The position numbers and the translations under genes are program-made. DNA of 64,000 nt from a virus: positions 64,001 through 128,000 of IMG/VR virus record IMGVR_UViG_3300047095_000811. One strand, given 5' to 3'. The notes beneath the pieces are model-generated. The model saw only the letters and a list, made by a program, of their open reading frames with translations. It made no database searches and had not been told where the DNA came from. This document shows positions 1,558 through 64,000 of this stretch, in pieces. How positions within the stretch are numbered: the stretch's first letter is position 1; every line of letters starts with the position of its first letter.

Positions 1558-2589
1558 ATGGCAGAATTGCTACTCACGCAGAACGAGCTGGACGCGTACC
1601 TCTCATCGGTCGATCTCTCCGACCCGGCGATCAACAGCGTCTTCAACTCGATTCAGTTGCTCACTACGAACAACTACAACGACATTCTCTACTACCTCGT
1701 CAATGGGCGGCTGACCATCCAGCAGCTGATTCAGACTCCGATCAACAACGCCACTGCTCGGAACCTCATTGCAGCCGCCGAGCAGGGCGGGAGTACAATC
1801 CTTGCGAGGAAAAAGTTCTACCAGAATTTCCTGTCTAAGCTGCCCAGCTTCATAGCCTTCGGGAACGACATGAAGAGCGTGCTGAGCACGTACATGTACT
1901 TTCTCGCATACCCGAGTTCGAATTTCGTCAAGACCGTCGAGATCGACTCCACCGGGCTCAGCACGACGAAATTCAACGGGATTGCTCCTATCAAGGAGAA
2001 GCACAATCAGATCCTTGCGTACTGTAAGGCACAGCCACAGTGGTCTGCGCTCACGGCGTACTGCAGCCGCTACAACTTGAACTCTCTGCTCGCAATCTTC
2101 GACAAAGAACTCAACACGTACGAGATGATCTCCACTGCGGATCGCAAGTATCTGTCGCTGAGAGCGTCTGCCAAGGACAGCATCTGCGGATACGCAATCC
2201 GTGGACTGTACGGATTTTCTTACCGGGTCTACTACGCCGAGTATCTGGACTACATCGTCAGCCAGATGGCAGCGAAGTACGATCAGGACGCCGCAAAGAA
2301 CGGCGCGGTCGGTCTGAGGTACGCCCAGACGCTCAATAATTGGGACGTACTCCCTCGGAGCTCAACCGCGTCGGAGCTCATCAAGAACCTCGGTCAGCTC
2401 TACATGGTGTTCTACAAGTTCCCGTCGATCTACGGTTCTTCGTACTTCACTCAAGCCGAAATAAACAGCGCACGAGCAATGCTCTCCATCTACATCGGAG
2501 ACGACGCGCTCAATCCGGGTTTCTTCGGGTACGTGAGGGCTTTCTTGGAGCTCTTCAACTCCCAGCTCGAAGCGCAGCTAGTTCCGTGA
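1558..2589 (+). CDS. putative virion structural protein
   Basis: 343 aa, AAGGA RBS, in the late operon leading to the portal. Confidence 0.55.
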   Translation: MAELLLTQNELDAYLSSVDLSDPAINSVFNSIQLLTTNNYNDILYYLVNGRLTIQQLIQTPINNATARNLIAAAEQGGSTILARKKFYQNFLSKLPSFIAFGNDMKSVLSTYMYFLAYPSSNFVKTVEIDSTGLSTTKFNGIAPIKEKHNQILAYCKAQPQWSALTAYCSRYNLNSLLAIFDKELNTYEMISTADRKYLSLRASAKDSICGYAIRGLYGFSYRVYYAEYLDYIVSQMAAKYDQDAAKNGAVGLRYAQTLNNWDVLPRSSTASELIKNLGQLYMVFYKFPSIYGSSYFTQAEINSARAMLSIYIGDDALNPGFFGYVRAFLELFNSQLEAQLVP

Positions 2590-2596
2590 GGAGATT

Positions 2597-3646
2597 ATGC
2601 CGAAACTTTCAATGTATGACCTTCGAAAATTCACTTCGAAGGTGGATCAGACAAATTTCCTGATCTTTGCAAAACTGCTGAACCTGACAGACCAAGACCT
2701 GTTCAACCTCGTCATAGAACTGCTGAATGACAACCGGATCAATCTGTTCATGCTCAGCGGTCTCCCCATGATCAGCGACCACACGGTCAAGAACTTCGTA
2801 GAAAGCTACCTCATCCACGTCGATCCTCAAGTCTTGCACACCTCGAATGTGTCGGACTTCAGCGTGTCGGACTACATGGAGGGGCTGAAGGACGGGGCGA
2901 ACGTCACCACCCTGATCGATCTGCTGAGAGCGTACAACGCTCAAGAGAACCTGAACTACGGTAAGCCCGGAAGGAAACTGATCGGAGACATCAAGCTCAC
3001 GCTCGACCGCTCAAGCTACTTCGGGTACAACAGTCTGCAGGACATCAAGACCGTCTTCGACCAGCACGTCAACTCCGACATCTGCAACGAGTTCCAGACG
3101 ATCGACATCCAGTACGTGTTCCCAACACCGCAGTCCCTCCCGACCCCGAATTCGGACCGGGCGACAGCAGTGCGGACGTGGTACTCCGACGTCTTTTCTC
3201 CGTTTCTGGGAGTCTTGAACAACCAGAGCCTACACGGCCTCCTGTACAGCGTCGACGAGACGATGGCAAAGTCGCAGGAGTACGTGGTCGAGTTCCACGA
3301 GATCTACAACTTCAAGCTCTACGGCGACAACATCCCGAAGCTGCACAACCAGACTGCGTTTGAGCTGGCTGCTCTCGGACGACCCTACAACGATGCCGAG
3401 ATCGCCGCCATCGAGGAGTCGATCTACAGCACATCGATCGTGCCGACGAGCCTGAGTGAGAGTATCTCCCTGAAGCTCTACAAGGCCCACATCGTTGCAC
3501 TCCACAAGGGTTACGCCGGAGATGCAGCCTACGCTAGTAAGATTATCGACGACCTCGAAGTGATCATCGAGATGATCGAACACTTCAAGAAAGTAGTCAA
3601 TATGATCTTGAACCAAACTCACGAGAATTTTAAAGTAGTGACATGA
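2597..3646 (+). CDS. putative virion structural protein
   Basis: 349 aa, GAGGAG RBS, directly upstream of the portal. Confidence 0.55.
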   Translation: MPKLSMYDLRKFTSKVDQTNFLIFAKLLNLTDQDLFNLVIELLNDNRINLFMLSGLPMISDHTVKNFVESYLIHVDPQVLHTSNVSDFSVSDYMEGLKDGANVTTLIDLLRAYNAQENLNYGKPGRKLIGDIKLTLDRSSYFGYNSLQDIKTVFDQHVNSDICNEFQTIDIQYVFPTPQSLPTPNSDRATAVRTWYSDVFSPFLGVLNNQSLHGLLYSVDETMAKSQEYVVEFHEIYNFKLYGDNIPKLHNQTAFELAALGRPYNDAEIAAIEESIYSTSIVPTSLSESISLKLYKAHIVALHKGYAGDAAYASKIIDDLEVIIEMIEHFKKVVNMILNQTHENFKVVT

Positions 3647-22925: not shown

Positions 22926-24833
22926 TCAGTACAGGCCGTCGATGATGCTTTCTTCATCCTTGCTGAACATGTTGTTCTCCACAACGTAGTTCAGACGCTC
23001 GAAGGCGAGGGTGATCGCCGCCGATGGATGATTGACGAGCGCGTTGGTGAGTTTGAGGAACTTCAACTTCTCGGGGTTGTCAAAGTTCTTCGGGCGGTGT
23101 TGAATGTCGTCCACATCCCTGAGCAACTCGCGGAGGATCAGCTCGATGGTGAGGCTGCTGGCGCGGATGTTCGAACGTTCGAGAAGGCCGAGGAACTCAG
23201 GAAGGATGAGGTGATAATTGCCGGGGTCGGAAATCTTCACCTTCTTCTTGGGCTCCTCTTCAATCACTTCTTCGATGTTGAGACGGGCCTCGCTCTCCAG
23301 AAGGTGGATGATGTTCTTCAGGGGGGTGGAGAGCTCGCTGTTCTCGACGTTGATCCGGAAGAGGTTCTCCTGACCGTCGTTCGAAACTTCGATGATGTTG
23401 TCTGCCTTGTACTTGGAAACCATGTCGGGGTTCTCAAGCACCACCAGCTCTTCTCCGTCGGCGAACTCGAACTCGACCTGACGGTCTCCGTCGAGCACCA
23501 CCATGCGCTTGATGACCGTCTCCTCCTCATCGTTGACGATGATCTCGGTTACGTTCACCTTGAAGTGCTTCTTGCCGATCAGGTTGGAGCCGTCGATCTC
23601 GAAGTACTCGTACATCTTCTGAGGGAGCTTCACCTTCTCCGGGTTGATCTGGAGCAGGTGCTTCGAGGACAGCAGCATCTGGGTCAGCTGCTCGGTGAGG
23701 CTGAGCACGCTGCTGATGCCGATATGGAACGGGTTCACCTTCACCAGATCGCCGTAGCAGGTGTGGCATATGCCGTCTTCGGCGCAGCAGGTGATCGGAG
23801 TGCGGAGCCGGATCTTCTTGCCGACCATACTCTGGTCCCGACCGTCGATCTTGACCAGCTTGCCCTTGACAGAGCGGTAGCGACCGTTGAGCCGCTTGAG
23901 CGCCGACTTGGACTCGATGACCATTTCGAGGTAGTTGTCGGACCCGCAGTCCTTGGTCTCAGACAGCTTCTGATTCAGCACCAGGAGCAGGAGCTTCCGC
24001 GACATGTAACCAGCGCGGCGCACTTGCAGCGAGTTGGTGATCAGCGCCTTGCGGGCACCCATCGCCGAGACGAAGTAGTCCATCTCGTTGCGGAACCCGT
24101 AGAAGAGGTTCGTGTCCACGCAGTGCGGGAAGATCGCAGATGAGGTCACCTCGGGCTTGTAGCCGACGTTGCAGAACACCTGCTGGAACTGTCCGATTGA
24201 CACAGCCGACAGGAGGTTCTTGTAACAGTTGTACTCGTCATCCTTGATGATAGCTTCGAGCAGCTGGCGGTTTGCGTTCTTGACCTTCTCGTTGCCTTCG
24301 AAGTAGTCGACCTTGGAGCCGGTCTCCTCCCGCACCTTGGTCTTCAGCAGAGCTGCTACTTCCGGATTTCGCTGCATCATCTGCAGCATGTCGTAGATGT
24401 TGATGCTGTTGCCAGCGGACTGGTTGACCTCGAATGCCATGTCTGCCAGCTCTTCGAGGCAGCGGGCGATGATCGCCTTGAGACCAGTGAGGTCAGCGTC
24501 CTCGTCGGTCGCCATGCGGATGGTGTCCGTGAAGTACGAGGACACCATCTTCGCCGCATTGTCTTCTGCGGAACACAGAAGAAGATCGCCCTCGTCGAGA
24601 TCCCGTTCCAGCACGTAGCGGGCCTTGATCGCGACGAGGGCGAGGACCAAGGCACCGAACCGCTGGCTCAGTACCTTGCCCATGAACTTGAACTTCGTTT
24701 CCCGACGACGAATCGAGAAGTCGGCCTTCAGGAGAGCGATACACTCGTCCGTGAAGTTAATCGTCGCTTCCAGATCTTTCTGCTCGACGAAGTTCAGATT
24801 TAGAACTTTTTCCTTTTCGTTTTTTGCCACCAT
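22926..24833 (-). CDS. multisubunit RNA polymerase beta-prime C-terminal half (probably non-virion RNAP)
   Basis: Bridge helix YFVSAMGARKAL...AGYMSRKL, KDCG, LRTPITC...GICHTCYG zinc site, trigger loop LTEQLTQMLLSSKH. Confidence 0.9.
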   Translation of the reverse strand: MVAKNEKEKVLNLNFVEQKDLEATINFTDECIALLKADFSIRRRETKFKFMGKVLSQRFGALVLALVAIKARYVLERDLDEGDLLLCSAEDNAAKMVSSYFTDTIRMATDEDADLTGLKAIIARCLEELADMAFEVNQSAGNSINIYDMLQMMQRNPEVAALLKTKVREETGSKVDYFEGNEKVKNANRQLLEAIIKDDEYNCYKNLLSAVSIGQFQQVFCNVGYKPEVTSSAIFPHCVDTNLFYGFRNEMDYFVSAMGARKALITNSLQVRRAGYMSRKLLLLVLNQKLSETKDCGSDNYLEMVIESKSALKRLNGRYRSVKGKLVKIDGRDQSMVGKKIRLRTPITCCAEDGICHTCYGDLVKVNPFHIGISSVLSLTEQLTQMLLSSKHLLQINPEKVKLPQKMYEYFEIDGSNLIGKKHFKVNVTEIIVNDEEETVIKRMVVLDGDRQVEFEFADGEELVVLENPDMVSKYKADNIIEVSNDGQENLFRINVENSELSTPLKNIIHLLESEARLNIEEVIEEEPKKKVKISDPGNYHLILPEFLGLLERSNIRASSLTIELILRELLRDVDDIQHRPKNFDNPEKLKFLKLTNALVNHPSAAITLAFERLNYVVENNMFSKDEESIIDGLY

Positions 24834-51318: not shown

Positions 51319-54300
51319 ATGGCTGTGTTCCTAAAGAACGTGGCGAAGTCCTTGTTGACTAATACCCTCCCGGAGGGTACCACGAGGCTCTTCCCCGGAA
51401 CCGCAGAAGTCATGTCCCGCTTTAAGCAGGACGTGGACAAGTCTGAGGGTATCGTAGACGAACTACGAGAGAAAGCATCAAAGTTCAGCCAAGCCGCAAA
51501 CTTCGCTGGATTCAAGCGGATCCACAAGACCGCGTTCAAGCAGCTCTCCACCGGCAAGTTCGGCATCTCCAAGGAGGAAGCCGACTCCGACATGATGAAG
51601 AGCATGGGCTTCGACATGGAGGGGATGGACCTCTCCGGAGACTTTGACTTCGACGCTGCAAACGGTGCAGGCGGCGATTCTTCGTCTTCCGCCGAGTCCT
51701 CGACCAGCCCGGATGGCTCGGTCACTGAGATTACCAACAAGAACTATTACACTAACATCAACAAAGGCAGCTCCGACAACGGAGAAGTCGTTAGTGCGAT
51801 CGCTTCCGGGGCAATCACCGGATTGGGCGGTCTAGCCGCAATCGGCGGCATTTTGTCTGAGATCAACAAGAACATCGGTCTGCTCGACGCCTTCCAGAAG
51901 GAAAAGACGTCGATGTACTACGACCTTTCACTGGAGGCTTCTAAAGCTCTGGTGGCGGCGCAGGAGAAGCAGAGCGCCGACTCCGCGAAGATGTACCAGT
52001 ACTTCGCGGACTTGCAAGATCAAAAAACTTTGAAGGCTGCTCAAGAGCAAACCGGGATCGACATGGGCTCCATGCTCGACCCCTCCAGACTGCTCGGGAA
52101 GATCAACGATAGCTTCTTCACCAGCGACATGGTGCTCGGCGGTCTCGGAAACGAGATTGGGAAGATCGCCAAGGATCCGATCGGATTCCTCGCGTCAGCT
52201 GCTCTTTTCGGGTCTGCGTTCGGTGGCGGTCGCGGTCTAGTTGGGGAGATGTTTGGTTCGCAGATCGATAAGGTCGAGCGGATGGCAAAGAACCTTCCGT
52301 ACTTGGCCCAGAACAAGCTCGAAAGCTGGTCTGCCGGTCGCGACTACGGTAAGAGTGGTTTCTCCATCGAGAACATTCTTGCCTCGATTGGCGACAACCT
52401 GAAGCTGGACATCGCTAACCCGAAGCTCAAGCTGAATCAGGATGCCGACGGAGCGACCTCGTTCGACACCGTGACCAGACGCTCCATCATCACCGAGATC
52501 CCAGGATACCTGTCTAAGATCTTGATGACGCTACAGCAGTTGACTGACATCACCAGCCGTGCGCACAACCTCCAGCCGGACTCCAAAATCGGTCACACCG
52601 TCTACGACAGGGAGACCGGGAAGTTCGAGGGAGAACACAAGTACAAGAGCGCGATCGCTTCAAGATTCCGCAAGATCAATCGCGGTGAGACTTCCGAGGG
52701 CTTTGGCACTAACTTGAAGCAGGCGATGACCGCCTCCGGCGTCAAGGGCCACGACGCTCGTCGCCTGCAGGCCAGCTTGCTCGGTCTCGCCAACTCCAAC
52801 TTCGCCGGGATGACGGACCTGAAGGACTCCAAGTCCGTCAAGGAAATGCTCGGTCGGATGTGGGATCAGGAGATCAAGAAGCGCAAGGGTCAGACCAACG
52901 AAGAGTACGAGGACTTCAAGAAGCGCACGATCGCCAAGCGGATCAGCAAGATCTCTCCGCATCTGGATTCCGTCATCGGGACCATGAATGCGTCTGGCAA
53001 GTCGGACGACATTCTGGCTGCTGACTTGGCTACTCGCAAGGCGGCGCTGGACAAGATCCGCGTTGAGAAGGGCGAGGCGCAGTACAAGGCGGAACACGCC
53101 AAGTTCCTTGAGTACAAGAAGCGCGTCGAGAAGCTGAAGGCTTCCGGCGACCTCGGAACCCACTACTCCAACAACCTCGAAGACTCCTTCATCCGCCACG
53201 GAGCGGACACGTACCAAGCCGTCGTGGACGAAGGCAAGCGCATGTCCGGGAAGACTTCCGGTATGGTTGCCGCTCTGAACGGAGACATCACCGAAGTCAA
53301 GGGTAAGAAGGACTACACTGTCAAGAATAAGGATGCTGACAAGCTCCGTAAGATGGCAGAGCAGTTCCGAGACAGAGCCAAGGCTTCTAGAGCTGCGTCC
53401 GGCTCCGATTCCGGCTTCTTCGACTCCATCGTCGACAAGATCGGCGGCGTCGGCACCAAGGTCTACGAGAAGATCGGCAAGGCCGGTGACAGCATCGCCA
53501 AGAGCGTGAAGTCCGGCATCACCAGCGTCTTCGGTCTAGACAAGAAGGAGACCAAAGGCAAGAGCCTGCTGGAGACCATGTCGTTTGCGTTCGACCAGAA
53601 GGCGCTTCTGCCGTTTAAGCGGATGCTCATCGGGAAGTCAGAGGGAGACGCGACCAAGATGTCGTTCCTCGACACCGTCAAGCTTCGCTGGGACACCAGC
53701 ATCTTGACGCCAATGAAGAAGGCGATGCTTGGAGAGGGAGCCACCGCTGAAGAGGCTCAGAAGACATCTTTCTTCGAGTCGCTGAACAAGGGCATGAACC
53801 GCACCGTTCTGATGCCGCTCAAGACGTGGCTCATCGGAGACGAGAAGGCCGCAAAGAGAGTTGGCTTCTTCAAGGCCATCGAGATCTCTTGGAATAAGAA
53901 TGTCATGCTCCCGGTGAAAACCTGGATGATGGGCGGCGACAAGAAGTCTGCCCGCAAGATGACATTCCTCCAAGTCGTCGGCGACAAGCTTGAGAAATCG
54001 GTGTTCCTCCCGCTCCGCACGAGCCTGCTCGGCGGGAACGAGAAGAAGGCCAAGAATCTGTCGATGTGGGGAGCGATCTCCCACAGCTTCGACCGCAACA
54101 TCACTCACCCGCTGAAGAAGCTCATGCTTCCTGACGCGGACGTCCGCACTCTCCGCAAGACGTCATTCCTGACCGCGATGCGTACCTCCTTCGACCAGAA
54201 GGTGCTGCAGCCGATCAAGGGGTGGCTGTTCGGCGAGGAGGGCAAGAAGAAGTCATTCTTCAAGAACTTCTCCGAATGGATGGGTCCGAGGATCAACAAG

Positions 54301-57300
54301 ATCCTCTTCGGCGACAAGGCCAAGGACAACACCCTGTGGGGCAACATCAAGAACACCCTGAAGGGAGTCGGCACGTTCATCTCCGACAAGGTATTCAAGC
54401 CCCTCAAGGGATGGTTCCTTGACGAGCTCATGCCCTCCATGAAGGACATGTTCAAGGAAGTCGGAGCAGAGGTCAAGCGTTTCTTCGGGAAGGCCAAGGA
54501 CTTCTTCACCAAGGATCTCGTGAAAGGTGCCAAGGGCATCATGAAGGAGATCTTGGGCGATGACATGATCAAGACGATCCGCGAGAAGGTCGTGGATCCG
54601 TTCAAGAATGCGATCGCTAAGCTCGGCGAAACGCTGGGCGGCTTCTTCAAGTTCTTCCTGAGACTGCCAGTGAACCTCTTCAAGGGTATTGCTGACTCGA
54701 TCAAGCTGAACCGCATGAAGCGCGGCGAGGGCAACTTCTCCGACGACGAGCGAAACCGCCTCGAAGCACTGGACAAGAAGGGTTCCACCTTCGACTTCAT
54801 GGCTGGCGTCCGCAAGAAGGCTGAAGACACCAAGAAGGCGGTTGACGACGCGTTGACTCCTCCGGCTGATGTTGGTCAACGCTTCAAGAAAGCCGGGGAA
54901 CAGGTCTCCGAGGGCTTCGAAGAAGGGATCGTTGACGGCACCAAGACCATCTGGGAGAAAGTCAAGGACATGGGCACTGGCGTGTTGGACAAGGTGAAAG
55001 CCGTGTTCGACATTCACTCTCCGTCCCGCAAGATGAGAGAGCTCGGCGAACACGTCGTCGAGGGCTTCATCGAGGGCCTGAAGAGGAAGGAACAAGAGGC
55101 TCTGGCGATCATCGACCGTCTGAGCAACTCCCTCCAGAATCGTAAGCTCGAACTGTCCGGAGAGATCACTGCCAAGGTGGACGAGGGCGCTGAGAAGGGT
55201 GGCCGCTTCGGCGAGATCATCAAACAGCTCCACGCCAACGTCACCGAGACGAAGAAGACCACGTCGATCCTCGACAAGATCCACGACTTCATGAAGGGCA
55301 ACCTATCCGAAGTCGACAAGACCACCAAGAAGATCCTCTACGCCATGAAGAACGGCGGCAAGGGTGCTGGCGAAATCGACCTGTACTCCAGTCCGCTGAG
55401 CTGGATGGGCAACAAGCTCGACAGTCTGCTCTCGACCGGCCTGAAGACCATCAAGGGATTCGTGGACGGCGCAGCGAACGTGCTGAAGAGCTTTTCCGAC
55501 CTGCCCAAGAAGGTGCTTGGGATGTTCGGCGATCTGGCGAAGTCTGCCATGAGCGTCGTGACCAACCTGCTCCCGAACATCGGCGATCTGGCGGCAAGCG
55601 CCATGAAGACGCTGAGCAACCTTGCGAAGAATGCTGGCGACACGTTCGTCAACATGACCGACAAGGTACTCCAAGCCGGTCTCAAGCTGGCCGGACAGAT
55701 CGGCAATGCGATCAAGCCTTTGACCGATGCGTTCGTCGACGTAACCTCAACTCTGATCAGCGGCCTGAAGCCTGCTGTTACGAGTCTGACGACTGCGCTA
55801 ACTAGCGCCGTGCAGGGTCTGGCTACTTTTGCTGGCAAGCTTCTGGACTTTGCGGGTCAGCTCGGGAACAAGGTTCTCGACTTCTCCGCCAAGCACCTCG
55901 GCATCTCTATCGGCAAGGGCCGGACCGGCGGAGGTCTCATGGACCCCAACGCCATCGTCAAGGTGTCGCTGGTGAATAGCTTCGTCGGCGGGTCTGCTGC
56001 GAATCCGATGTACGTACACGTTGTAGACGGTAAGGTTCAGGTTTACAGGAAGGAAAAGCCTTCCGTGAAGATGACCGACAACATCGAGGACGTGACTGCC
56101 GCAGCCGACAAGCTCAAAGGTAAGAAGGACGCCGAGAAGAAAGAAGACAAGAAGGACGATACTCTCGATAAGCTGAAGGATGTCGCTGGCACCGTTGCGG
56201 GTGCTGCTGCTCCGGGGCTGATTGGGAAGGCAGCTACTACTGTCGGTGCCAAGGTCGCTGCGGCCAAGGCTGGCGCGAGTAGTATCCTTGGTAAGATCGT
56301 CGATCGCGGCGATTACACCAAGGCAAAGGCAATCGACAAGTTCCGTACTGCGGATAAGATCAACGTTCGTTCCGACGAATGGAAGAATCTGAGCAAGGCC
56401 GACAGATCGAAGATTCTGAGCGAACGGAAGGCAGCTGCGAAGGCAGGGGAGACCCTGAAGTCGAGCCGCACTGTCAGGATCAACGAGGGTCTGAAGAAGG
56501 CCGGAGGTAAGGTCACCGGAGCCATCGACAAGGTTGGCAAGGGTGCTTCTTGGATTGGAGACAAAATCTCAGGTGCAGGGAAGGCCGTCACCAAAGCTAC
56601 GACCGGCAAGTTCGGGACTGGCGGTGCAGGGAACCTGATCTCCAAGGCGACTTCTGGCGCTGTCGACAAGATCGGCGGGCTGGCAAAGACTAGCATCGAG
56701 AAGGTTGGTTCTTCGAGAATCGGTCAGGCAGTGGGCGGCGCTCTGGAGAAAGTTCCGGGCGGAGCTATCGCCAAGACTGTCGGTGGCGCTGCCGGGAAAC
56801 TTGGCGGTGCTGCTGCGTCCATGACCGGGAAAGCCTTTGGTGGCGTGGTTGGCACTGGCGTGAAAGCCATTGGCAGCACCGTTGCCAATGTCGGCGTCCG
56901 GATGCCTACGGCTATCGCTGGCGGTGCCATGAACATGGCGGGCAAAGCCGTCAGCGGCGTTGCTGGCATGGCAGGCAAGATGGCGGGCTCGGTCATGAAG
57001 ATCGGTGCCAAGGGTCTCACGATCGGCGGCGTAGTCGGCGGTCTGGGCGAAGTCATCTCCGACACCATCTTCGAGAAGGGTGGCCACGCTCACAAGATCT
57101 TCACGAACTCCTTCAAGACGCTCGGCGGTGCATCCACCGGTGCTATGATCGGCAGTATGATCCTTCCGGGGGTCGGCACGCTGATCGGCGGCGTCATTGG
57201 TGCTGCTGCGTCCGGTCTGACGGATGCTCTGGCGGGCGTCAAGGACTGGCTGGAGGACACCTTCAAAGACGAGATCCAGAATGCGACCGGCTTCTTCCTT

Positions 57301-59676
57301 GAATTCCCGGAGAAGCTGAGCGGTTGGATCGAGAAGCTGCCGGAGAAGGTTGACAAGTTCGCGGAAGAGATTCCCAATAAGATCATGGCGTTCTTCTCGA
57401 CTCCGACGACCTCGGAGCTCGACCCGACGACTGGCCTACCGAAGGAAGAGAAACCCTCTATCCTCTGGAAGATGGTCAAGGCGCTCGGGAACGCTGGCAT
57501 GAGTCTCGTTGCTCAGGCACCTAAGCTGGCGATCACCCTCGGGGAGTCTCTGACTAAGGTTCTGGTGGCGGGCATCATCACTGCCGGTGGGTTCATGTTG
57601 AAGGGCTTCGCTCGTTTCGGCAACATGATCCAGAACGCTTTCGAAGATAACGTCTACTTGCCGCTCAAGGGCAGCGTCCAGAAGCAGCTCATCAAGTTGG
57701 GCGACTTCGTCAGCGGCGTGTTCGAGGACGGCTTCGGCGGTTCCATCAACCGCGTCAGACAGTCTCTCGCCGACATGAAGATCAGCATCTTCGGCAAGGA
57801 ATTCGCACCGTTCAGCTTCCTCGCGGTCTCCGACCAAGAGAAGGCAGACATGGCGGCGAAGGCCAAGGCGAGAGAAGAATCGACTAACCAGAAGCTCAAG
57901 GCCGTCGACACCGAGCAAGACCAGTACAAGCTCGCTAGAGACAAGCGCCAGCAGGCCAGCCTGCAGGCCATCGACGACGGTACGAAGGGCGCGATTGCCA
58001 CAAGCAACAAGCTCGTCGGAGGTCTCGGTGATGCCCTCCGCTCCGCCACAGGGGCTAACGCCGCTGCCGAGTGGGGTAAGGGTCTGGGCAAGGGAGACCG
58101 AAACCAGAACCGCTACGCTCAGGCGATGGAAGCCGCGAAGGGCGACGAGAAGAAGGCCAAGGAAGAGTACGCCAAGAAGTTCCTGATCTCCGAAGAGGAG
58201 GCGGCTACAGCCAAGGCGAAGAACGACGGCAGCTACGAAAGATTGGTTGCCGAACGCACCGCAAGTGTGGACAAGGACGCGAACTGGAGTCAGGGCAAGA
58301 CCTCGTACGGAGCAGCGAAATCTGCTGCAAACGAGGAACGCTACAAGACTTGGCTGCAGTCTCAGGGTCTCAAGGACAACGAGCAGTCGCGTAACAAGTT
58401 CGATCTACTCGTCCAGTCGGAGCAATCCGGCAGAGTGATCATGGCCAGCGGCAAGGCTTTCGGTAAGCCAGAAGTGGAAGACGCCATCACGAAGGCGGCT
58501 AACGCGTACGGCATCCCGAGAGACCTGATGGTCAAGATGGCGCTGATCGAGTCGAACATGAATCCTTCGGCAAGCCGTGGCCCGAACGGCGCGAAGGGTC
58601 TGTACCAGTTCGTGCCCGACACCGCAGCTGCCTACGGGATCAAGGGTCGCGAGTTGGATCCGTATGCCAATGCTGAAGCGGCAGCTCGTCTGTTCCGCGA
58701 CAACATGAAGCAGATGACCAACAAGGGCATCCCCATCACCCCGACCACCATGTACCTTGCTCACCAGCAGGGTGCGGGCGGTCTCGGCGCTATCTGGTAC
58801 TCGGCCAAGTCTGGCATGGGCATTAGCAGCAAAGAGATCGCGGGGAACATGGCGAACAACGACCCGCTCGGCGAGAGCAAGTACAGGGATCCGAAATTGT
58901 TCCTCGCTGCTTGGGAGAAGAAGCTTGGAGAAGGCAACCAGCTGGCGAGCATGTTCGGGGTCTCCCCGGATGTCGTCGCTGGCGTCAAGCTGAACTCCAA
59001 CATTGCGGCAATGAGCGGAGGCAGTCCTGCTTCCACCGCTATGGCTGCAGTGGCTTCGGCTCCTGCGCCGAAGGTCGCTCCTGCGGCTACCGCCATGACT
59101 GCTCTGGCTGCGGCTCCGTCCGTTGCGCCTCAGACTAAGGCGTCTCCTGCTGCTACCGCTAACACGGTTTCCGACAAGGTGATGACTGCAGCTACGACCC
59201 CAACGGTCTCCGCTGCGCCATCCACTGCGAAGGGCAACGTCATGGGCGGTATTGCGGTGGCGACGGCTGCAGGTCTGGCCGGAACTGCGGCGAGAGAGTC
59301 TGTCCAAGACCGTCAGCTCAACACGAGCTCGATTCAGGCTGCTATGGCTCCGACTGGCGGCGTGGATCCGGCTCTGGCGGAACTGCGTCAGCAGACTACT
59401 CTCCTTGCCGCGATTGCGGGCAACACCAAGGAACTCGGTGGGATGTCGAACAGCATCGTGTCTGCGGTGAACAATGTGACGAACAACAATGGCGCGGCCA
59501 CGAAGGTGGCCGAGAACGTCGAGAGATCTAACACGTTCGTCAATAATGCTAGGAAGACGGACATCTTCGGAAATCTGACCAACAGAGGTGACGCTGGAGT
59601 GCTGAGGCCCTCGGTCGATGCTCTTCGCATTGCCTCTGGTGGGAATATCCCGAACATGAGCCCGATCACTGTCTGA
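51319..59676 (+). CDS. tape measure protein with lytic transglycosylase domain
   Basis: 2785 aa, helical repeats, DIHSPSR motif, Gly-rich hydrophobic region, SLT motifs IESNMNP...AKGLYQF...YLAHQQG. Confidence 0.85.
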   Translation: MAVFLKNVAKSLLTNTLPEGTTRLFPGTAEVMSRFKQDVDKSEGIVDELREKASKFSQAANFAGFKRIHKTAFKQLSTGKFGISKEEADSDMMKSMGFDMEGMDLSGDFDFDAANGAGGDSSSSAESSTSPDGSVTEITNKNYYTNINKGSSDNGEVVSAIASGAITGLGGLAAIGGILSEINKNIGLLDAFQKEKTSMYYDLSLEASKALVAAQEKQSADSAKMYQYFADLQDQKTLKAAQEQTGIDMGSMLDPSRLLGKINDSFFTSDMVLGGLGNEIGKIAKDPIGFLASAALFGSAFGGGRGLVGEMFGSQIDKVERMAKNLPYLAQNKLESWSAGRDYGKSGFSIENILASIGDNLKLDIANPKLKLNQDADGATSFDTVTRRSIITEIPGYLSKILMTLQQLTDITSRAHNLQPDSKIGHTVYDRETGKFEGEHKYKSAIASRFRKINRGETSEGFGTNLKQAMTASGVKGHDARRLQASLLGLANSNFAGMTDLKDSKSVKEMLGRMWDQEIKKRKGQTNEEYEDFKKRTIAKRISKISPHLDSVIGTMNASGKSDDILAADLATRKAALDKIRVEKGEAQYKAEHAKFLEYKKRVEKLKASGDLGTHYSNNLEDSFIRHGADTYQAVVDEGKRMSGKTSGMVAALNGDITEVKGKKDYTVKNKDADKLRKMAEQFRDRAKASRAASGSDSGFFDSIVDKIGGVGTKVYEKIGKAGDSIAKSVKSGITSVFGLDKKETKGKSLLETMSFAFDQKALLPFKRMLIGKSEGDATKMSFLDTVKLRWDTSILTPMKKAMLGEGATAEEAQKTSFFESLNKGMNRTVLMPLKTWLIGDEKAAKRVGFFKAIEISWNKNVMLPVKTWMMGGDKKSARKMTFLQVVGDKLEKSVFLPLRTSLLGGNEKKAKNLSMWGAISHSFDRNITHPLKKLMLPDADVRTLRKTSFLTAMRTSFDQKVLQPIKGWLFGEEGKKKSFFKNFSEWMGPRINKILFGDKAKDNTLWGNIKNTLKGVGTFISDKVFKPLKGWFLDELMPSMKDMFKEVGAEVKRFFGKAKDFFTKDLVKGAKGIMKEILGDDMIKTIREKVVDPFKNAIAKLGETLGGFFKFFLRLPVNLFKGIADSIKLNRMKRGEGNFSDDERNRLEALDKKGSTFDFMAGVRKKAEDTKKAVDDALTPPADVGQRFKKAGEQVSEGFEEGIVDGTKTIWEKVKDMGTGVLDKVKAVFDIHSPSRKMRELGEHVVEGFIEGLKRKEQEALAIIDRLSNSLQNRKLELSGEITAKVDEGAEKGGRFGEIIKQLHANVTETKKTTSILDKIHDFMKGNLSEVDKTTKKILYAMKNGGKGAGEIDLYSSPLSWMGNKLDSLLSTGLKTIKGFVDGAANVLKSFSDLPKKVLGMFGDLAKSAMSVVTNLLPNIGDLAASAMKTLSNLAKNAGDTFVNMTDKVLQAGLKLAGQIGNAIKPLTDAFVDVTSTLISGLKPAVTSLTTALTSAVQGLATFAGKLLDFAGQLGNKVLDFSAKHLGISIGKGRTGGGLMDPNAIVKVSLVNSFVGGSAANPMYVHVVDGKVQVYRKEKPSVKMTDNIEDVTAAADKLKGKKDAEKKEDKKDDTLDKLKDVAGTVAGAAAPGLIGKAATTVGAKVAAAKAGASSILGKIVDRGDYTKAKAIDKFRTADKINVRSDEWKNLSKADRSKILSERKAAAKAGETLKSSRTVRINEGLKKAGGKVTGAIDKVGKGASWIGDKISGAGKAVTKATTGKFGTGGAGNLISKATSGAVDKIGGLAKTSIEKVGSSRIGQAVGGALEKVPGGAIAKTVGGAAGKLGGAAASMTGKAFGGVVGTGVKAIGSTVANVGVRMPTAIAGGAMNMAGKAVSGVAGMAGKMAGSVMKIGAKGLTIGGVVGGLGEVISDTIFEKGGHAHKIFTNSFKTLGGASTGAMIGSMILPGVGTLIGGVIGAAASGLTDALAGVKDWLEDTFKDEIQNATGFFLEFPEKLSGWIEKLPEKVDKFAEEIPNKIMAFFSTPTTSELDPTTGLPKEEKPSILWKMVKALGNAGMSLVAQAPKLAITLGESLTKVLVAGIITAGGFMLKGFARFGNMIQNAFEDNVYLPLKGSVQKQLIKLGDFVSGVFEDGFGGSINRVRQSLADMKISIFGKEFAPFSFLAVSDQEKADMAAKAKAREESTNQKLKAVDTEQDQYKLARDKRQQASLQAIDDGTKGAIATSNKLVGGLGDALRSATGANAAAEWGKGLGKGDRNQNRYAQAMEAAKGDEKKAKEEYAKKFLISEEEAATAKAKNDGSYERLVAERTASVDKDANWSQGKTSYGAAKSAANEERYKTWLQSQGLKDNEQSRNKFDLLVQSEQSGRVIMASGKAFGKPEVEDAITKAANAYGIPRDLMVKMALIESNMNPSASRGPNGAKGLYQFVPDTAAAYGIKGRELDPYANAEAAARLFRDNMKQMTNKGIPITPTTMYLAHQQGAGGLGAIWYSAKSGMGISSKEIAGNMANNDPLGESKYRDPKLFLAAWEKKLGEGNQLASMFGVSPDVVAGVKLNSNIAAMSGGSPASTAMAAVASAPAPKVAPAATAMTALAAAPSVAPQTKASPAATANTVSDKVMTAATTPTVSAAPSTAKGNVMGGIAVATAAGLAGTAARESVQDRQLNTSSIQAAMAPTGGVDPALAELRQQTTLLAAIAGNTKELGGMSNSIVSAVNNVTNNNGAATKVAENVERSNTFVNNARKTDIFGNLTNRGDAGVLRPSVDALRIASGGNIPNMSPITV
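53550..54420 (+). repeat. about 33-aa degenerate repeats in the tape measure protein
   Basis: Eight or nine copies of K(M/T)SF(L/F)...(W/F)D+xVLxP(L/I)KxWLxG. Confidence 0.75.
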
Positions 59677-59770: not shown

Positions 59771-61180
59771 ATGGCCGACGAAAACAATCCGTATTCTCAA
59801 TTCTACCAGCCGGGGTTCGGTACCATCATCGGTCGGCCCCTTGCTTTCAATCCTCGGTGCGATCCTCACCAGAGGATCTTCCAAGAGACGCTGCTGCAGA
59901 ACAACACAATCATCCGCGTCACCCCCGGAGTCTATCACTTCGAGAAGGACAAGCTGGAGGCGGCTGATCTGATCCTCAAGGATCATTCCAAGCAGGTCGA
60001 CGAGATCAAGAAGTCCAGAAGAACCACTGCGGCAGAAGAGCTCGACCAGCTCAACGCCCAGACCCAGCAGATTCTCATCAAGGAAGGTATCGACATGCGA
60101 TACCTGACCTTCAAGCCAGCGTTCGCCGAGTTCTTGACCGCCTACCAGCTTCTGGTGAACCGGGCAGGCACCTCTCTGACCGGGCGGTCCAATGCCAGCA
60201 CGATGACGAAGTTCACGACTAACATCATGGACTTCATGCTGCACAACGACGCCAAGCAAAGCTCCAAGTACCGTGGGTTCAACCTGTGGGTGGAGAAGTC
60301 TACGTCTATCTCCGAGACGGTGTCTAACTCCTTCTCGGACTCCGTCTTCCAGGGTCTGACCGACAAGATCGGCAACGCCGCGAGAGAGTTCCAGGTTCTG
60401 ACGGGGATGAACTTCGGCACCTTCAACGAGTCGAACAACGTCGAGGTGACGACTCAGAACAACATCGGGTCCAACGAGGCTTCCACGGTTGGCCGTCTGG
60501 TCCAGACTGCCGCGACGACTGCCTCCGGCGCGAAGGTCGTCCTTCCGCAGATCTGGAATGACAGCAAGTTCGACCGCAGCTACAACGTGTCGTTCCGTTT
60601 CATGTCCCCGTACGGCGACGACCGATCCGTCTTTGTGAACGTCATCCTGCCGTTCCTCTTCATCTTGGCCTGCGCACTTCCGACTCAGGACGGTCCTTCC
60701 GGCATGAAGTTCCCTTTCCTGCTACAGATGGACTGCCCCGGCTACTTCAGCTGCCCTATGGGCGTGATCAGCAACCTGAGCTTCACCAAGGGCGGCTCCG
60801 ATGCGCTCTTCAATCGCTCCGGACTCCCTCTGATCATCGAGGGTACCTTCAGCGTGATGGATCTGTACAGCTCTCTGTCTCTGCCCATCAACGATTCTCA
60901 GTTTGTGACTAACCTCGGAACTGCTGCGTTCATCAACAACTTGGTTGGTGCGTCGCTGTATCAGGCGATCGACACCGGCATCAAGGACAACCTGCAGAAC
61001 TATGTCAAGGGCGGTCTCTTGAAAATGGTCAGTCCGTTCAATTCTCTAGACGCCAAACAGCTAGACCTGATGCGTTACGCTGGCATTGCCACCGACCAGA
61101 CGACTCCGCTAGGATCTACCGTCGCCAACAAGATCGGTCAGGCCGTGAACAACGTGATGGGAATGCTATCGAAGTACTGA
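59771..61180 (+). CDS. putative baseplate/tail-tube-initiator-like structural protein
   Basis: 469 aa after the tape measure gene; PQIWNDSKFDRSYNVSFRF...PFL...GVISNLSFTKGG. Confidence 0.55.
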   Translation: MADENNPYSQFYQPGFGTIIGRPLAFNPRCDPHQRIFQETLLQNNTIIRVTPGVYHFEKDKLEAADLILKDHSKQVDEIKKSRRTTAAEELDQLNAQTQQILIKEGIDMRYLTFKPAFAEFLTAYQLLVNRAGTSLTGRSNASTMTKFTTNIMDFMLHNDAKQSSKYRGFNLWVEKSTSISETVSNSFSDSVFQGLTDKIGNAAREFQVLTGMNFGTFNESNNVEVTTQNNIGSNEASTVGRLVQTAATTASGAKVVLPQIWNDSKFDRSYNVSFRFMSPYGDDRSVFVNVILPFLFILACALPTQDGPSGMKFPFLLQMDCPGYFSCPMGVISNLSFTKGGSDALFNRSGLPLIIEGTFSVMDLYSSLSLPINDSQFVTNLGTAAFINNLVGASLYQAIDTGIKDNLQNYVKGGLLKMVSPFNSLDAKQLDLMRYAGIATDQTTPLGSTVANKIGQAVNNVMGMLSKY

Positions 61181-61235: not shown

Positions 61236-62030
61236 ATGTCCGAAAAGATCATTGGCTACGTATTTCACGAAGCCGCAATGAACGAGGGCGAGATCCGTTC
61301 CATGCAGCGCCAGCGCAACGGCGTAGTCCGCATGGTGGCCGTCCTCCAAGAAGCCAACCTGCCCAACCGAAACGGTCGTGTCTACCCGAAGGCTGTCATC
61401 GAGAAGGCTCTCCAAGCTCCCTTCGTGAAGGAAAAGCTCGGCACGAACTCTTTGCTCGGCGAGTCCAACCACCCGGCGAACGCAGACATGCAGCGCCAGA
61501 TGTCCATCGACCTGAACAACGTGTCCCACGTCATCAAGAAGGTCTGGTGGGATCCGCAGGACAGCAACCTGCTGCTCGGCGAGGTGGAGACCGCCTCCAC
61601 CGAGACCGGCAAGAACTTCGCCGGTCTGATCTCCGAGAACGGCATGCAGGCTTCCTTCTCCATGCGTGGCCTCGGCGACGTGGTTAAGGCAGGTGGCAAG
61701 GTTACTGTCAAGGATCCTCTCCGTATCGTGACCTACGACAGCGTTCATTTCCCTTCCCACCAGAAGGCGTACATGCGCAACGTGGTGAACGAGTCCGCAG
61801 TGCCGGTCGGCATCGACGCACTGGCGAAGTACGCCGCCGAGAACTCCAAGGACTTCGCGCAGCTGAACGAGAACGTCCTGTGCATCGCCCAAGACAAGCT
61901 CGACTTCAAGCTCGAAGAGGGCGGCAAGCTCGTCATCATCGACCGCGAGATCCAGCGTCCGGCTGCAGTGGTGCTGATCGAGTCGAAGCTGGAGAAGGAA
62001 GTAACTTCCGCTCTCCGTCGTCTGTTCTAA
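61236..62030 (+). CDS. prohead protease (T4 gp21-like)
   Basis: NRNGRVYP, GESNHP, SHVI, FSMRGLG, TYDSV..PS; late promoter 61190-61201. Confidence 0.9.
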   Translation: MSEKIIGYVFHEAAMNEGEIRSMQRQRNGVVRMVAVLQEANLPNRNGRVYPKAVIEKALQAPFVKEKLGTNSLLGESNHPANADMQRQMSIDLNNVSHVIKKVWWDPQDSNLLLGEVETASTETGKNFAGLISENGMQASFSMRGLGDVVKAGGKVTVKDPLRIVTYDSVHFPSHQKAYMRNVVNESAVPVGIDALAKYAAENSKDFAQLNENVLCIAQDKLDFKLEEGGKLVIIDREIQRPAAVVLIESKLEKEVTSALRRLF

Positions 62031-62074
62031 GAAAAGAAACCCCCTATGGCGTAATTGCCATAGGGGTTCTTTTT
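62031..62074. terminator. bidirectional terminator
   Basis: ACCCCTATGGC/GCCATAGGGGT flanked by A and T runs. Confidence 0.75.
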
Positions 62075-62447
62075 ACCCTTTGAGGGTCACGCCGAGCTCT
62101 TTCGCTCTGGCTCTGATCATGGGGATCACTTCGCCTTCCATCGACTTGTACAAGTCGATCATGTCGTCGTCACTGTGAGCGAGATTGTGGATCCCGGTCG
62201 TGCCGACTCTGGACTTGAAGTCCGCGATGGAGGCTTTGTAGTTGTCTAGGACTTGCTGGAGATCTTCTTGCTTGTCCATGTGCTGGAGGGCCTTCTTGAC
62301 GATGGCGATGCCAGCGTCTTTCCCGATCTTGTGGCCGAAACTCCGGAAGAGCGAGAACGGCCAGAAATCGAGACGGAAAGCCTTGAAGGCGATGTTGTCT
62401 TCCGAGAGGAAGAAGTTCTTGTAATCGTGGACGGACGTTGCCATCAT
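62073..62447 (-). CDS. hypothetical late protein
   Basis: 124 aa, coupled to the upstream gene. Confidence 0.65.
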   Translation of the reverse strand: MMATSVHDYKNFFLSEDNIAFKAFRLDFWPFSLFRSFGHKIGKDAGIAIVKKALQHMDKQEDLQQVLDNYKASIADFKSRVGTTGIHNLAHSDDDMIDLYKSMEGEVIPMIRARAKELGVTLKG

Positions 62448-62914
62448 TTCACCTTCAGCATCTTGTCCTTCGCTTCCATGCGAAGGTGCTTCAACTTCGT
62501 GACGTGGTGGTCAACGATAGACTTCTGGTCGTCCTTGATGAAGTGAGCGGCCAGCAAGCCAGCGCCCAGCCCAATCAGAGCACCAGTCCCTTCGTGACCG
62601 CGATCTGCAGCCAGTGCGCCGACCAGCGCGCCGCCCTGCATGTAAGCTCCGACTCGTTCGCCGCTGCGCTTGTTCTCGGTGTACCCGCAGTCTTCCAGAG
62701 CGTCCTCGATATCCTGGGTGAGGATTTCAATTTCGGTACGGTTCTTTGCGGTTCCAAGGCGAAGCTCGAAGCGGCGAGCTAGATCGTCGCCCTGACCGTT
62801 CATCACCTTACGGAAGTACGGATTGTCCTGACTATGGGAGTACTCGTTCAGAGCCTCCGCATCGGTCACTTCTCCGCTGAGGAAGAAGCCGACCAAATCT
62901 TGCACTCTTGACAT
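62444..62914 (-). CDS. glycine-zipper late protein
   Basis: GGALVGALAA...GTGALIGLGAGLLAA; AACA-N6-TA at 62944-62955. Confidence 0.65.
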   Translation of the reverse strand: MSRVQDLVGFFLSGEVTDAEALNEYSHSQDNPYFRKVMNGQGDDLARRFELRLGTAKNRTEIEILTQDIEDALEDCGYTENKRSGERVGAYMQGGALVGALAADRGHEGTGALIGLGAGLLAAHFIKDDQKSIVDHHVTKLKHLRMEAKDKMLKVK

Positions 62915-63330
62915 GATTTACCTTTGGTGGTGGATCTACAGACTAATGCAGTGTTCTTGTCGCACTTGAACAGTTTGTCGAGAACTTTCACCAAAGTTTC
63001 GGGTTTGAACGGCTTGATGATGTAGCCGTTCACCCCGAGTTTCACCATCTCTTCGATGCGCTTCTTCTCGCACTCGGCGGTCAGCATGACCACAGGAGTC
63101 CTTTCCATGCCGGGAGTCTGCCGCACCTTGGCGACTAGGTCTCCCCCTGTCATGTTCGGCATGTTCCAGTCGCTGATGACTAGATCGTACTTGCTGAGCT
63201 GGAGAGATTCGAACGCTTCCCTCCCGCAGCTAGCCTCGGAGACGGTGCATCCGTACTCCTTGACGATGGCCGAAACGATGCGCCTCATCGTGGACATGTC
63301 GTCCACGACCAATACTCTTTTGCTCTTCAA
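62866..63330 (-). CDS. cheY: CheY-type single-domain response regulator
   Basis: VLVVDDMSTMRRIV, ISDWNMPNM, MLTAE, GYIIKPF; TTG start with AGAGG RBS. Confidence 0.88.
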   Translation of the reverse strand: MKSKRVLVVDDMSTMRRIVSAIVKEYGCTVSEASCGREAFESLQLSKYDLVISDWNMPNMTGGDLVAKVRQTPGMERTPVVMLTAECEKKRIEEMVKLGVNGYIIKPFKPETLVKVLDKLFKCDKNTALVCRSTTKGKSCQECKIWSASSSAEK

Positions 63331-63336
63331 GGCATC

Positions 63337-64000
63337 TTACCTCTTTTTCACTTTTTTCTTGATGGTGAATCCGCTCTTGGGAGAGGGAACCGCCGCTGTG
63401 GTTGTCTTCTTCTCTTCGGCGAAATCCATGATCTCCACCTTGGTGCGAAGCGGCTTGGAGAAATCGACTTTCTCAATCGGAATCTCGTTGTCCGGACCCG
63501 GTCTCACCCAGTTCTCGAACTCCTCGTCGGTCATCGGCTTGCTCATCTCCGGATCGGAGAAAGACACCATGTCGATGGGAATGTCATTGCAGTGATCGAA
63601 ATTGCATCCCGGCGGCGGGAGATCCTCGCTGGTTGCCTCTCGGATCTCATGAAAAGGGAACGCTCCACCACCGGGAACGACCGTCACTTTCTCTTCCAGA
63701 GCCCCAGCTTTTTCAGCAGATCCTTGTACATCTTCTTCCTGAACTGCTTCAGCGTCTTCGGTGTCGCCTTCTTCATTTTCGGTTCTCGCTAGGATTCTGT
63801 CGAGCGCGTCTTGGAGTTTCTTCTTGTCCTCATCGGTGGGCTCCGAGTCAGACTTCAGGCCGAGCCTCTTCATCTCGCAAGGGCAGTGGGGGTCATTGCC
63901 CACTTTTCCGATGCAGGCGCACATGCTGAGCTTACCGGACTCAAGACCGGCGATGACTTCCTTCACTTCGGAGTGAGCTGGGTGATCGGGATCGTTCAAG
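63337..64000 (-). CDS. acidic hypothetical protein with Cys cluster (partial)
   Basis: CACIG...HCPCEM; runs off the window end. Confidence 0.65.
   Translation of the reverse strand, partial: LNDPDHPAHSEVKEVIAGLESGKLSMCACIGKVGNDPHCPCEMKRLGLKSDSEPTDEDKKKLQDALDRILARTENEEGDTEDAEAVQEEDVQGSAEKAGALEEKVTVVPGGGAFPFHEIREATSEDLPPPGCNFDHCNDIPIDMVSFSDPEMSKPMTDEEFENWVRPGPDNEIPIEKVDFSKPLRTKVEIMDFAEEKKTTTAAVPSPKSGFTIKKKVKKR

Follow-up and report, generated by a model that had tools for sequence, protein, structure and literature searches.

A CheY-like receiver gene in a jumbo phage accessory operon, with a possible role as a phosphate sink

The window analyzed here is a 64,000-nucleotide stretch of viral DNA, bases 64001-128000 of the 136,853-bp IMG/VR virus record IMGVR_UViG_3300047095_000811, whose completeness CheckV puts at 52%. 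On its minus strand, at 62866-63330, lies a 154-residue open reading frame (ORF) that an initial annotation described as an intact, phage-encoded CheY. Our comparisons confirm that this gene should encode a complete CheY-type receiver with an intact phospho-acceptor site. By its sequence, the protein is a member of a divergent CheY subfamily and not a standard chemotaxis CheY. The function that we favor, at a probability of roughly 45%, is a CheA-linked interference with host chemotaxis in which the protein would act mainly as a phosphate sink.

The ORF, its Pfam and NCBIfam matches and its identity to E. coli CheY together mark a CheY-like single-domain response regulator gene. Residues 6-117 match the Pfam family Response_reg (PF00072) with an E value of 7.6e-29 and 100.6 bits, compared to a gathering cut-off of 30.2. 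Among 102 matching NCBIfam families, CheY (NF007901) comes first at 115.6 bits and PhoB second at 69.7, although 115.6 bits lies under the cut-off of 189 bits that NCBI applies to CheY equivalogs. BLASTP against CheY of E. coli K-12 gave 57 identical residues out of 122 (47%; E 6e-38), and the top PDB chains by sequence are E. coli and Salmonella CheY (E ~1e-29). We also modeled the protein with AlphaFold2 (AF2), using a 68-row alignment. The model contains five strands and five helices, with block-mean predicted local distance difference test (pLDDT) values of 87-98 over residues 1-120. Foldseek returned 3myy_A as the top match (template modeling score by target 0.92, root-mean-square deviation 1.2 Å), and CheY chains account for 48 of the 50 best PDB matches. 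Together with a residue column table, these results delimit a receiver domain of (β/α)5 fold at residues 1-122 (62965-63330, minus strand). The protein consists of this one domain, with no output domain, and a 33-residue tail without a family match.

The receiver carries D10, D11, D54, T84, A85, E86, Y103, K106 and P107. When aligned to E. coli CheY, D10, D11, D54, T84, Y103 and K106-P107 correspond to D12, D13, D57, T87, Y106 and K109-P110, and the acidic pocket, phospho-Asp, Thr, Tyr and Lys-Pro pair listed in the initial annotation are all present. The motifs it had singled out are there as well: DDMSTMRRIV at residues 10-19 (DDFSTMRRIV in E. coli), SDWNMPNM at residues 53-60 (the same in E. 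coli) and, for TAE..K, TAECEKK at residues 84-90 (TAEAKKE in E. coli). In E. coli numbering, D12, D13, D57, T87, K109, the W58-N59-M60-P61 segment, A88 (T+1) and E89 (T+2) are unchanged. N59, A88 and E89 sit beside the phosphorylation site and tune CheY kinetics. Helix α1 (STMRRIV), which in CheY forms part of the surface that docks the phosphodonor, shows no difference from E. coli. The features held in common with E. coli and Salmonella CheY (PDB 3CHY, 3MYY, 1F4V) are the fold, the active site, the D+2 Asn, T+1 Ala and T+2 Glu, helix α1 and SDWNMPNM.

Unlike E. coli CheY, the phage protein has a one-residue deletion at N32 and the substitutions N23A, L69V, N94R, T112K, A113P and K119V, it ends in a Cys-rich tail of 33 residues, and it is encoded by a phage in whose record che genes were not found. 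Several of these changes fall on the α4-β5-α5 face, by which CheY binds FliM, CheZ and the P2 domain of CheA. On this face Y106, I95 and K122 have retained equivalents and V108 has become Ile; K119 is replaced by Val, A113 by Pro, T112 by Lys and N94 by Arg. The phrase "intact CheY" holds for the receiver itself, for which CheY is the nearest of the named families by NCBIfam and Foldseek, but it should not be stretched to a motor-controlling CheY, since the protein scores below the NF007901 cut-off, belongs to an orphan clade and has an altered α4-β5-α5 face.

To place the protein among its relatives, we drew on a collection of 5.8 billion proteins, in which 6815 of 6874 candidates matched. 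The nearest sequences outside its own cluster are short metagenomic proteins of 119-121 residues (P0003-P0005, 63-67% identical), followed by P0008-P0013 at 52-57%; P0003-P0013, spanning 52-67% identity, derive from ENA, Logan, NCBI or JGI contigs. In JGI metagenome contigs the best relative among the matches listed is 53% identical, and in a set with one genome per GTDB species the best is 51% identical (Zoogloea, Asticcacaulis, Bradyrhizobium and others). A search for a host clue in 201 genomes from the order of the Zoogloea metagenome-assembled genome (MAG) found none above 50% identity.

We labeled 163 loci for che context by the presence, in the flanks, of homologues of E. coli CheA, CheW, CheR, CheB (C-terminal part), CheZ or methyl-accepting chemotaxis protein (MCP), and built two trees. 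The FastTree tree has 296 rows and leaves out P0002, P0136, P0137 and proteins longer than 170 residues. The IQ-TREE tree has 79 rows: 19 core sequences, the first 30 che-context loci, 22 random loci without che genes and 8 further proteins, the two sets of loci being chosen after 11 long-branch rows had been set aside. The phage protein falls in the same group in both trees. In the IQ-TREE tree this group is an 18-row clade on a long stem, with ultrafast bootstrap (UFBoot) and SH-like approximate likelihood ratio test (SH-aLRT) support of 99/98. The clade is placed among CheYs of che operons, with joining forks that are weak (UFBoot/SH-aLRT 7/38, 5/0 and 66/90).

All four clade members with known context (L086, L009, L006 and L012) lack a che gene in the surrounding DNA. 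L086, from the Zoogloea MAG, lies on a bacterial chromosome and adjoins a phosphoglycerate mutase gene (gpmI) and a dihydroorotase-like gene, as read from translations. L009, also on a bacterial chromosome, is flanked by a LysR regulator and topA/dprA; L006, with 1.1 kb of context, adjoins an anthranilate-synthase-like (trpE-like) gene; and L012 has no che gene within its 2.4 kb of context. These orphan "KPFKP" receivers of Proteobacteria, together with the P0023 group, are stand-alone proteins of about 120-135 residues. They share with the phage protein the DDM motif, the one-residue deletion and the K-P after KPF, the last of which L006 (KPFSQ) lacks, and they differ from it in their location on bacterial chromosomes, their 45-53% identity and the absence of a tail. 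When the nine sequences nearest to the phage protein are compared with 42 che-context CheYs, the marks held in common are N23A, loss of N32, L69V, N94R, N105G, A113P and K119V (E. coli numbering). Position T112 is Lys in 9/9 of them, and the active site and helix α1 are unchanged.

These features suggest how the protein might work. The gene would have come from a proteobacterium, captured by an ancestor of this jumbo phage, and would now be expressed from second position in an accessory operon whose first gene encodes a homologue of Acb1, an inhibitor of the cyclic-oligonucleotide-based antiphage signaling system (CBASS). The protein would be phosphorylated by a host donor, most likely a CheA-type kinase through its P1 (HPt) domain. 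It would then compete against host CheY for the available phosphoryl groups and upset the way in which chemotaxis controls the flagellar motor; its main action would be that of a phosphate sink. The donor would have to come from the host because the record, at about 52% completeness, encodes no kinase: across its 136,853 bp, PF02518 (HATPase_c), PF01627 (Hpt), PF01584 (CheW), PF04344 (CheZ) and PF00015 (MCPsignal) gave 0 matches each, and the receiver is the only one it contains. This agrees with the earlier remark that no kinase or che gene lies nearby and extends it to the whole 137-kb record. CheA seems the most likely donor because the active site, helix α1 and the fast-turnover residues match those of E. 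coli CheY. A sink is favored over a motor binder because the clade alters the α4-β5-α5 face but not the active site or α1, and because 4/4 contexts are orphan. The identity of the donor, the action as a sink and any consequence for motility are our inferences from comparisons of this kind. The effects proposed in the initial annotation, namely draining of CheA, bias of the motor and a block to flagellum-dependent superinfection, are plausible hypotheses.

Several observations weigh against this proposal. No cellular homologue above 53% identity was found among the matches listed in JGI contigs, in GTDB species or in the 201 genomes, so that no cognate CheA can be named. Because the clade's bacterial members lie outside che operons, their phosphodonors may be other than CheA. 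The record holds about half of the genome, so a kinase could be encoded in the remaining part. P110, the equivalent of A113P in E. coli CheY, fits motor binding as well as it fits a sink. Neither of the two nearest complete relatives, the 263-kb IMG/VR phage G001 and Yersinia phage phiR1-37, has a receiver domain. The one true RNA run (X17) gave just a 36-nt match inside the gene, and this came from another organism. Finally, variants in one wastewater run (Y103C, P107S and a deletion at 63115, described below) suggest that the gene is dispensable and perhaps decaying in some strains.

A different outcome of the same chemistry would be direct action on the motor, with the protein binding FliM/FliN, either phosphorylated or constitutively, and biasing flagellar rotation. 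The motor might, for example, be stopped or reversed to counter flagellum-dependent superinfection, or the dispersal of infected cells might be changed. We regard this as unlikely. Y103, I92, I105 and K119 keep the E. coli residues Y106, I95, V108 and K122 or a conservative equivalent. In addition, E. coli CheY with the engineered substitution A113P provides the top PDB sequence matches, 3oo0 and 3myy, the second of which leads the structural matches too. A113P, whose equivalent position is occupied by P110, is a substitution that we take to be activating. The phage's wider kin include AR9 and PBS1, the latter of which is flagellotropic. Against motor binding, E. coli K119, a contact for both FliM and the P2 domain of CheA, is Val in the phage protein, and T112K and N94R change the same face. 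The bacterial clade members are orphans and not che-operon genes. Moreover, the closest isolate, phiR1-37, is reported to use a lipopolysaccharide receptor and not flagella (PMC13030884). As for A113P, the one report found names it among the CheY mutants studied (PMC7395124).

We next consider whether the gene does anything during infection. A host gene captured by chance, neutral or decaying and without a role, would explain its absence from both of the nearest complete relatives, the lost stop codon and disordered tail discussed below, and the possibly damaged copies in one run. Contigs of other runs contain 7 variant sites in the gene, 5 of which are synonymous third positions. The non-synonymous changes Y103C and P107S occur together on one 187-nt wastewater contig of run X3 (window 63012 and 63023), and in another contig of that run a single base is deleted at 63115, with roughly half the local depth. 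Even so, this explanation is rather improbable. All key residues are intact both in the window protein and in its 96% identical variant P0138, which differs by S48N, V70I, C87A, K90R, L98I and E153K, none at a key residue. The fraction of G+C at third codon positions (GC3) is 0.73, compared to 0.65-0.82 in five neighboring genes. Because the 96% variant spares the key sites, 5/7 variant sites are synonymous and GC3 matches that of the neighbors, selection appears to maintain the CheY-like gene, at least in some members of the lineage. Phage-like codon use in a gene with no cellular relative above 53% identity, among the matches listed, further points to long residence in the phage.

The gene's coupling to its neighbors also argues against a chance passenger. 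It starts with TTG (63330-63328) and ends with TGA (62866-62868). A Shine-Dalgarno-like AAGAGG, read from the sequence, lies at 63340-63345 on the minus strand, 9 nt 5' of the TTG and within the 3' end of the upstream Acb1-type gene, whose TAA (63337-63339) leaves a 6-nt gap to the TTG. The operon consists of four minus-strand genes in the order Acb1-type, CheY-like, orf156 and orf124, separated by the 6-nt gap, a 49-nt overlap and a 4-nt overlap and followed by a terminator. Because G001 and phiR1-37 lack matches to the receiver, orf156 and orf124, we conclude that the CheY-like gene is lineage-specific cargo in a variable accessory region.

The initial annotation had also pointed to a Cys-rich extension of about 30 residues that overlaps the next gene. 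Both the extension and the overlap are there. The C-terminal extension, drawn from the sequence and the AF2 model, covers residues 123-154 (62869-62964, minus strand). Counted from F121, the tail comprises 33 residues (KCDKNTALVCRSTTKGKSCQECKIWSASSSAEK) and runs into the start of orf156, overlapping it by 49 nt including the stop codon (46 coding nt). Cysteines occur at 123, 131, 140 and 143, in a protein with 7 in total. What the earlier description did not convey is that the tail is predicted to be disordered, with pLDDT below 50 for residues 124-145 and 147-154, and is confined to near-identical strains. Relatives stop 0-5 residues past the F121 position, and the tail is found only in variants of 96-100% identity and in P0002, not in P0003-P0013 or any other aligned sequence. 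It is kept in P0138 and in the fragment P0137, and the substitutions seen in it are Q141H, S147L and E153K. A homologue at 59% identity retains the N-terminus of orf156, which indicates that the overlapping stretch truly codes for orf156. Given how often stop codons occur in the window, the chance of reading 33 open codons past a lost stop is 0.39. The tail is most simply explained as the by-product of a lost stop codon. We also considered a zinc-binding module and rejected it: C-x7-C-x8-C-x2-C is no standard knuckle, there is no conservation beyond near-identical strains, and read-through of this length has the chance just given.

The position of the gene suggests a further possibility, namely that the protein is a decoy whose source of phosphoryl groups is not CheA but a different host kinase, which it would drain, such as that of a Detocs-type defensive two-component system. 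It lies 6 nt behind the Acb1 homologue in the same operon of lineage-specific cargo, and its bacterial clade-mates are orphans without a known partner. There is also a precedent in DtcB, a stand-alone receiver that is proposed to take up phosphate straying from the kinase DtcA and so serve as a phosphate buffer (10.1101/2023.01.24.525353). The likeness to DtcB is one of working principle only: both would be stand-alone receivers soaking up kinase phosphoryl groups, but DtcB lies in a bacterial dtcA-dtcB-dtcC operon, whereas the phage record has no kinase match and no second receiver. Other evidence makes the decoy quite improbable. The nearest characterized relatives are, by a wide margin, chemotaxis CheYs, and we found no report in the literature searched of a phage receiver blocking Detocs. 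When the four proteins of the operon were scanned with PADLOC (v2.0.0), no meaningful match came up (best E-value 0.007), a result that counts little since the library seems to have no DtcB model.

A broader version of these ideas treats the protein as a counter-signaling weapon, a diffusible phosphate sink that would be produced along with Acb1 from an anti-defense operon and would shut down a host phosphorelay, whether chemotaxis or a Detocs-type system. We consider this rather improbable. If chemotaxis were shut down, motility would be frozen or flagellum-dependent superinfection blocked. With either target, the protein would be the first from a phage shown to disarm two-component signaling by receiver mimicry.

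All of these readings presuppose that the gene belongs where it was assembled. The same 154-residue protein is on record from four sources (NCBI, Logan, JGI and ENA). Two runs, which may themselves be the source, contain all sampled words of a 3-kb stretch, and two further studies yielded contigs that match most of the gene with 95-100% identity. Among contigs from independent runs, none was found to reach across a gene boundary with 31 nt to each side, and parts of the 3-kb stretch have no cover in runs X3, X5 and X8. In run X5 there is one weak joint, 62152 to 63447 (side 21). Chimeras can evidently form at this locus, as P0002, a 662-bp ENA contig, illustrates. Over the first 100 residues, the encoded protein matches Xanthomonadales CheY at 85-93% identity; its last third, including the tail, is that of the phage gene, and the parts join at a common GVNGYIIKPF stretch. 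Bacterial contigs in two runs match the window over only that stretch, 36-40 nt. P0002 is probably an assembly chimera; were it instead a real recombinant with a host cheY, it would point to a Xanthomonadales host. Despite P0002 and the unbridged boundaries, it is very improbable that the segment in the window itself arose by chimeric assembly or by the joining of contaminating bacterial DNA to that of the phage, because the gene packing and GC3 match those of the neighbors and the ribosome-binding site lies inside the upstream phage gene, to which the four data sources and the further runs and studies can be added.

Phages carry host-derived genes that reprogram metabolism, as well as inhibitors of immune systems. 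Stand-alone receivers are known among them. We searched 50,697 GenBank phage records with tblastn and matched 115, all below 60% identity; the best, at 42%, is an unannotated 2.5-kb record, and many of the matched "phage" records are multi-contig and bacterial-looking. An IMG/VR scan with the phage protein alone found 0 relatives. When the clade alignment served as query, 76 stretches came up, of which 3 were confirmed (28-39% identity), so that at least three other viral contigs (L003, L004 and L005) carry stand-alone receivers. In BFVD, 29 viral proteins have the receiver fold at E <= 0.001, none of them more than 30% identical.

L003 (132 residues, on a T4-like fragment) and L004 (128 residues, on a complete 94-kb phage) have DWNM motifs and are 39% and 37% identical to the window protein, respectively. 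They come from unrelated phages and fall outside the window protein's clade in the 296-row FastTree tree, where L003 has a long branch and its place is unsure. The L003 gene (1796-2194, plus strand, on a 7.7-kb AT-rich contig) encodes a canonical-looking CheY (DDFSTMRRII, SDWNMPGVTG, KPFT). By translation its neighbors are T4-like replication genes, including a clamp-loader-like one, which suggests another independent capture of CheY by a phage. The L004 gene (7977-8363, plus strand, in the 94,430-bp phage G002) has IVPES in place of VTAEA and lacks the conserved Thr; it may be a non-switching receiver variant.

Published lists contain similar genes. CheY-like "class II auxiliary metabolic genes" have been annotated, without further study in the parts of the sources available, in Alteromonas phages V22 (gp30, 149 residues) and A5 (gp11, 147 residues) (PMC7289586, PMC10579305). 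Like the window gene, these encode stand-alone receivers in lytic tailed phages, as far as those sources describe them (PMC7289586, PMC10579305). They sit in a host-recognition (tail fibre) module, whereas the window gene lies behind an anti-defense gene. V22 gp30 matches the window protein at the level of fold only (20% identity, Foldseek E 7.1e-10), pointing to a separate acquisition. For phages of ammonia oxidizers, CheY, CheR and MCP are among the genes listed in one report (10.64898/2026.05.02.722434). Stand-alone CheY-like phage genes have thus been listed before, and the window gene adds another member. In the literature searched we found no functional study of a phage-encoded CheY, and no demonstration of phage interference with two-component phosphorelays or chemotaxis.

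The window protein is a good test case: it is small, its phosphorylation residues are intact, its 47% identity to E. coli CheY means that standard assays apply, and its gene stands beside an anti-defense gene. If it proves functional, this would show that phages manipulate host behavior or signaling through receiver mimicry; if it does not, annotations of CheY-like auxiliary metabolic genes would be marked as describing passengers.

The first gene of the operon occupies 63337-64000 on the minus strand as a 3' part. The whole ORF (127337-128605 of the record; 1858-3126 of the extracted locus L001) encodes 422 residues, with an N-terminal Acb1 domain (anti-CBASS 2H phosphodiesterase, PF23474, E 4.8e-23) at residues 5-150. 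This domain has both HxT/S motifs (HVTLLYS and HITLSC), and about 270 further residues, partly Cys-rich, are fused after it. For residues 151-422 we found no family and no usable Atlas match. G001 has an Acb1-like gene at the matching place after the protease (170 residues, stand-alone, L002 12496-13008), and the small genes between the two differ.

Downstream of the CheY-like gene, orf156 (62444-62914, minus strand, ATG at 62914-62912) encodes 156 residues with no Pfam, PHROG, NCBIfam or PADLOC family. In the collection of 5.8 billion proteins it has just 2 relatives, at 94% and 59% identity, each with the N-terminus conserved. The highest Atlas score, 0.75, is a lead only. The protein has a Gly/Ala-rich hydrophobic patch (GGALVGALAA...GALIGLGAGLLAAHF) that is glycine-zipper-like; in a crude scan of its hydropathy, the top 19-residue mean is 1.31 and no membrane helix stands out clearly. 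A predicted complex between the CheY-like protein and orf156 scored 0.00 with a mark of 0.32, which is not evidence either way. The last operon gene, orf124 (62073-62447, minus strand, 124 residues), overlaps orf156 by 4 nt and has no Pfam, NCBIfam or PHROG family. Neither orf156 nor orf124 has a match in G001 or phiR1-37. A bidirectional terminator-like hairpin of 10-11 pairs, 7 of them G-C, lies at 62041-62066 (L001 562-587, found by a scan and checked in the sequence), between the operon and the convergent protease gene. No lysis gene was noticed next to the operon, though no search of the window aimed at one was made.

That gene (61236-62030, plus strand) adjoins the operon and encodes a head maturation protease (Pfam Peptidase_S77, 4.9e-17; phrog_3014, 2.9e-34). 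With it and a virion protein gene among the neighbors, and with GC3 inside the range of the neighbors, the phage context and codon style are as first described. To place the phage, we used the virion structural protein encoded at 59771-61180 on the plus strand (phrog_20401, E 1.3e-102). It is 43.6% identical to g085 of the 262-kb phage phiR1-37, the nearest isolate, and 53% identical to its counterpart in G001, a complete IMG/VR phage of 263,413 bp with terminal repeats; more distant kin occur in AR9, PBS1 and staphylococcal jumbo phages. The window also encodes a T4-type large terminase and a DnaB-like helicase. Near-identical DNA is present in contigs from lake-water, wastewater and river runs of several studies. 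We conclude that the record is a fragment of a phiR1-37-like jumbo phage from freshwater or wastewater. No tRNA genes, which might have given a host clue, were found in the window, and a megablast of 12 kb of it for close phage relatives gave no match.

Three other proteins deserve mention. A 635-residue protein (22926-24833, minus strand) matches RNA polymerase Rpb1 domain 5, a piece of β', in keeping with jumbo phages of the phiR1-37/AR9 type, whose multisubunit RNA polymerases are split. A 2785-residue protein (51319-59676, plus strand) contains an SLT lytic transglycosylase domain near residue 2400 and is the positional counterpart of the phiR1-37 "tape measure tail fibre protein" g083 and of a 2333-residue protein in G001. 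A 389-residue ORF immediately outside the window (128676-129845 of the record, plus strand) runs divergently to the operon; its CxxxCxxC-like motif, GCAKNCSYCNW, points to a possible radical S-adenosylmethionine enzyme.

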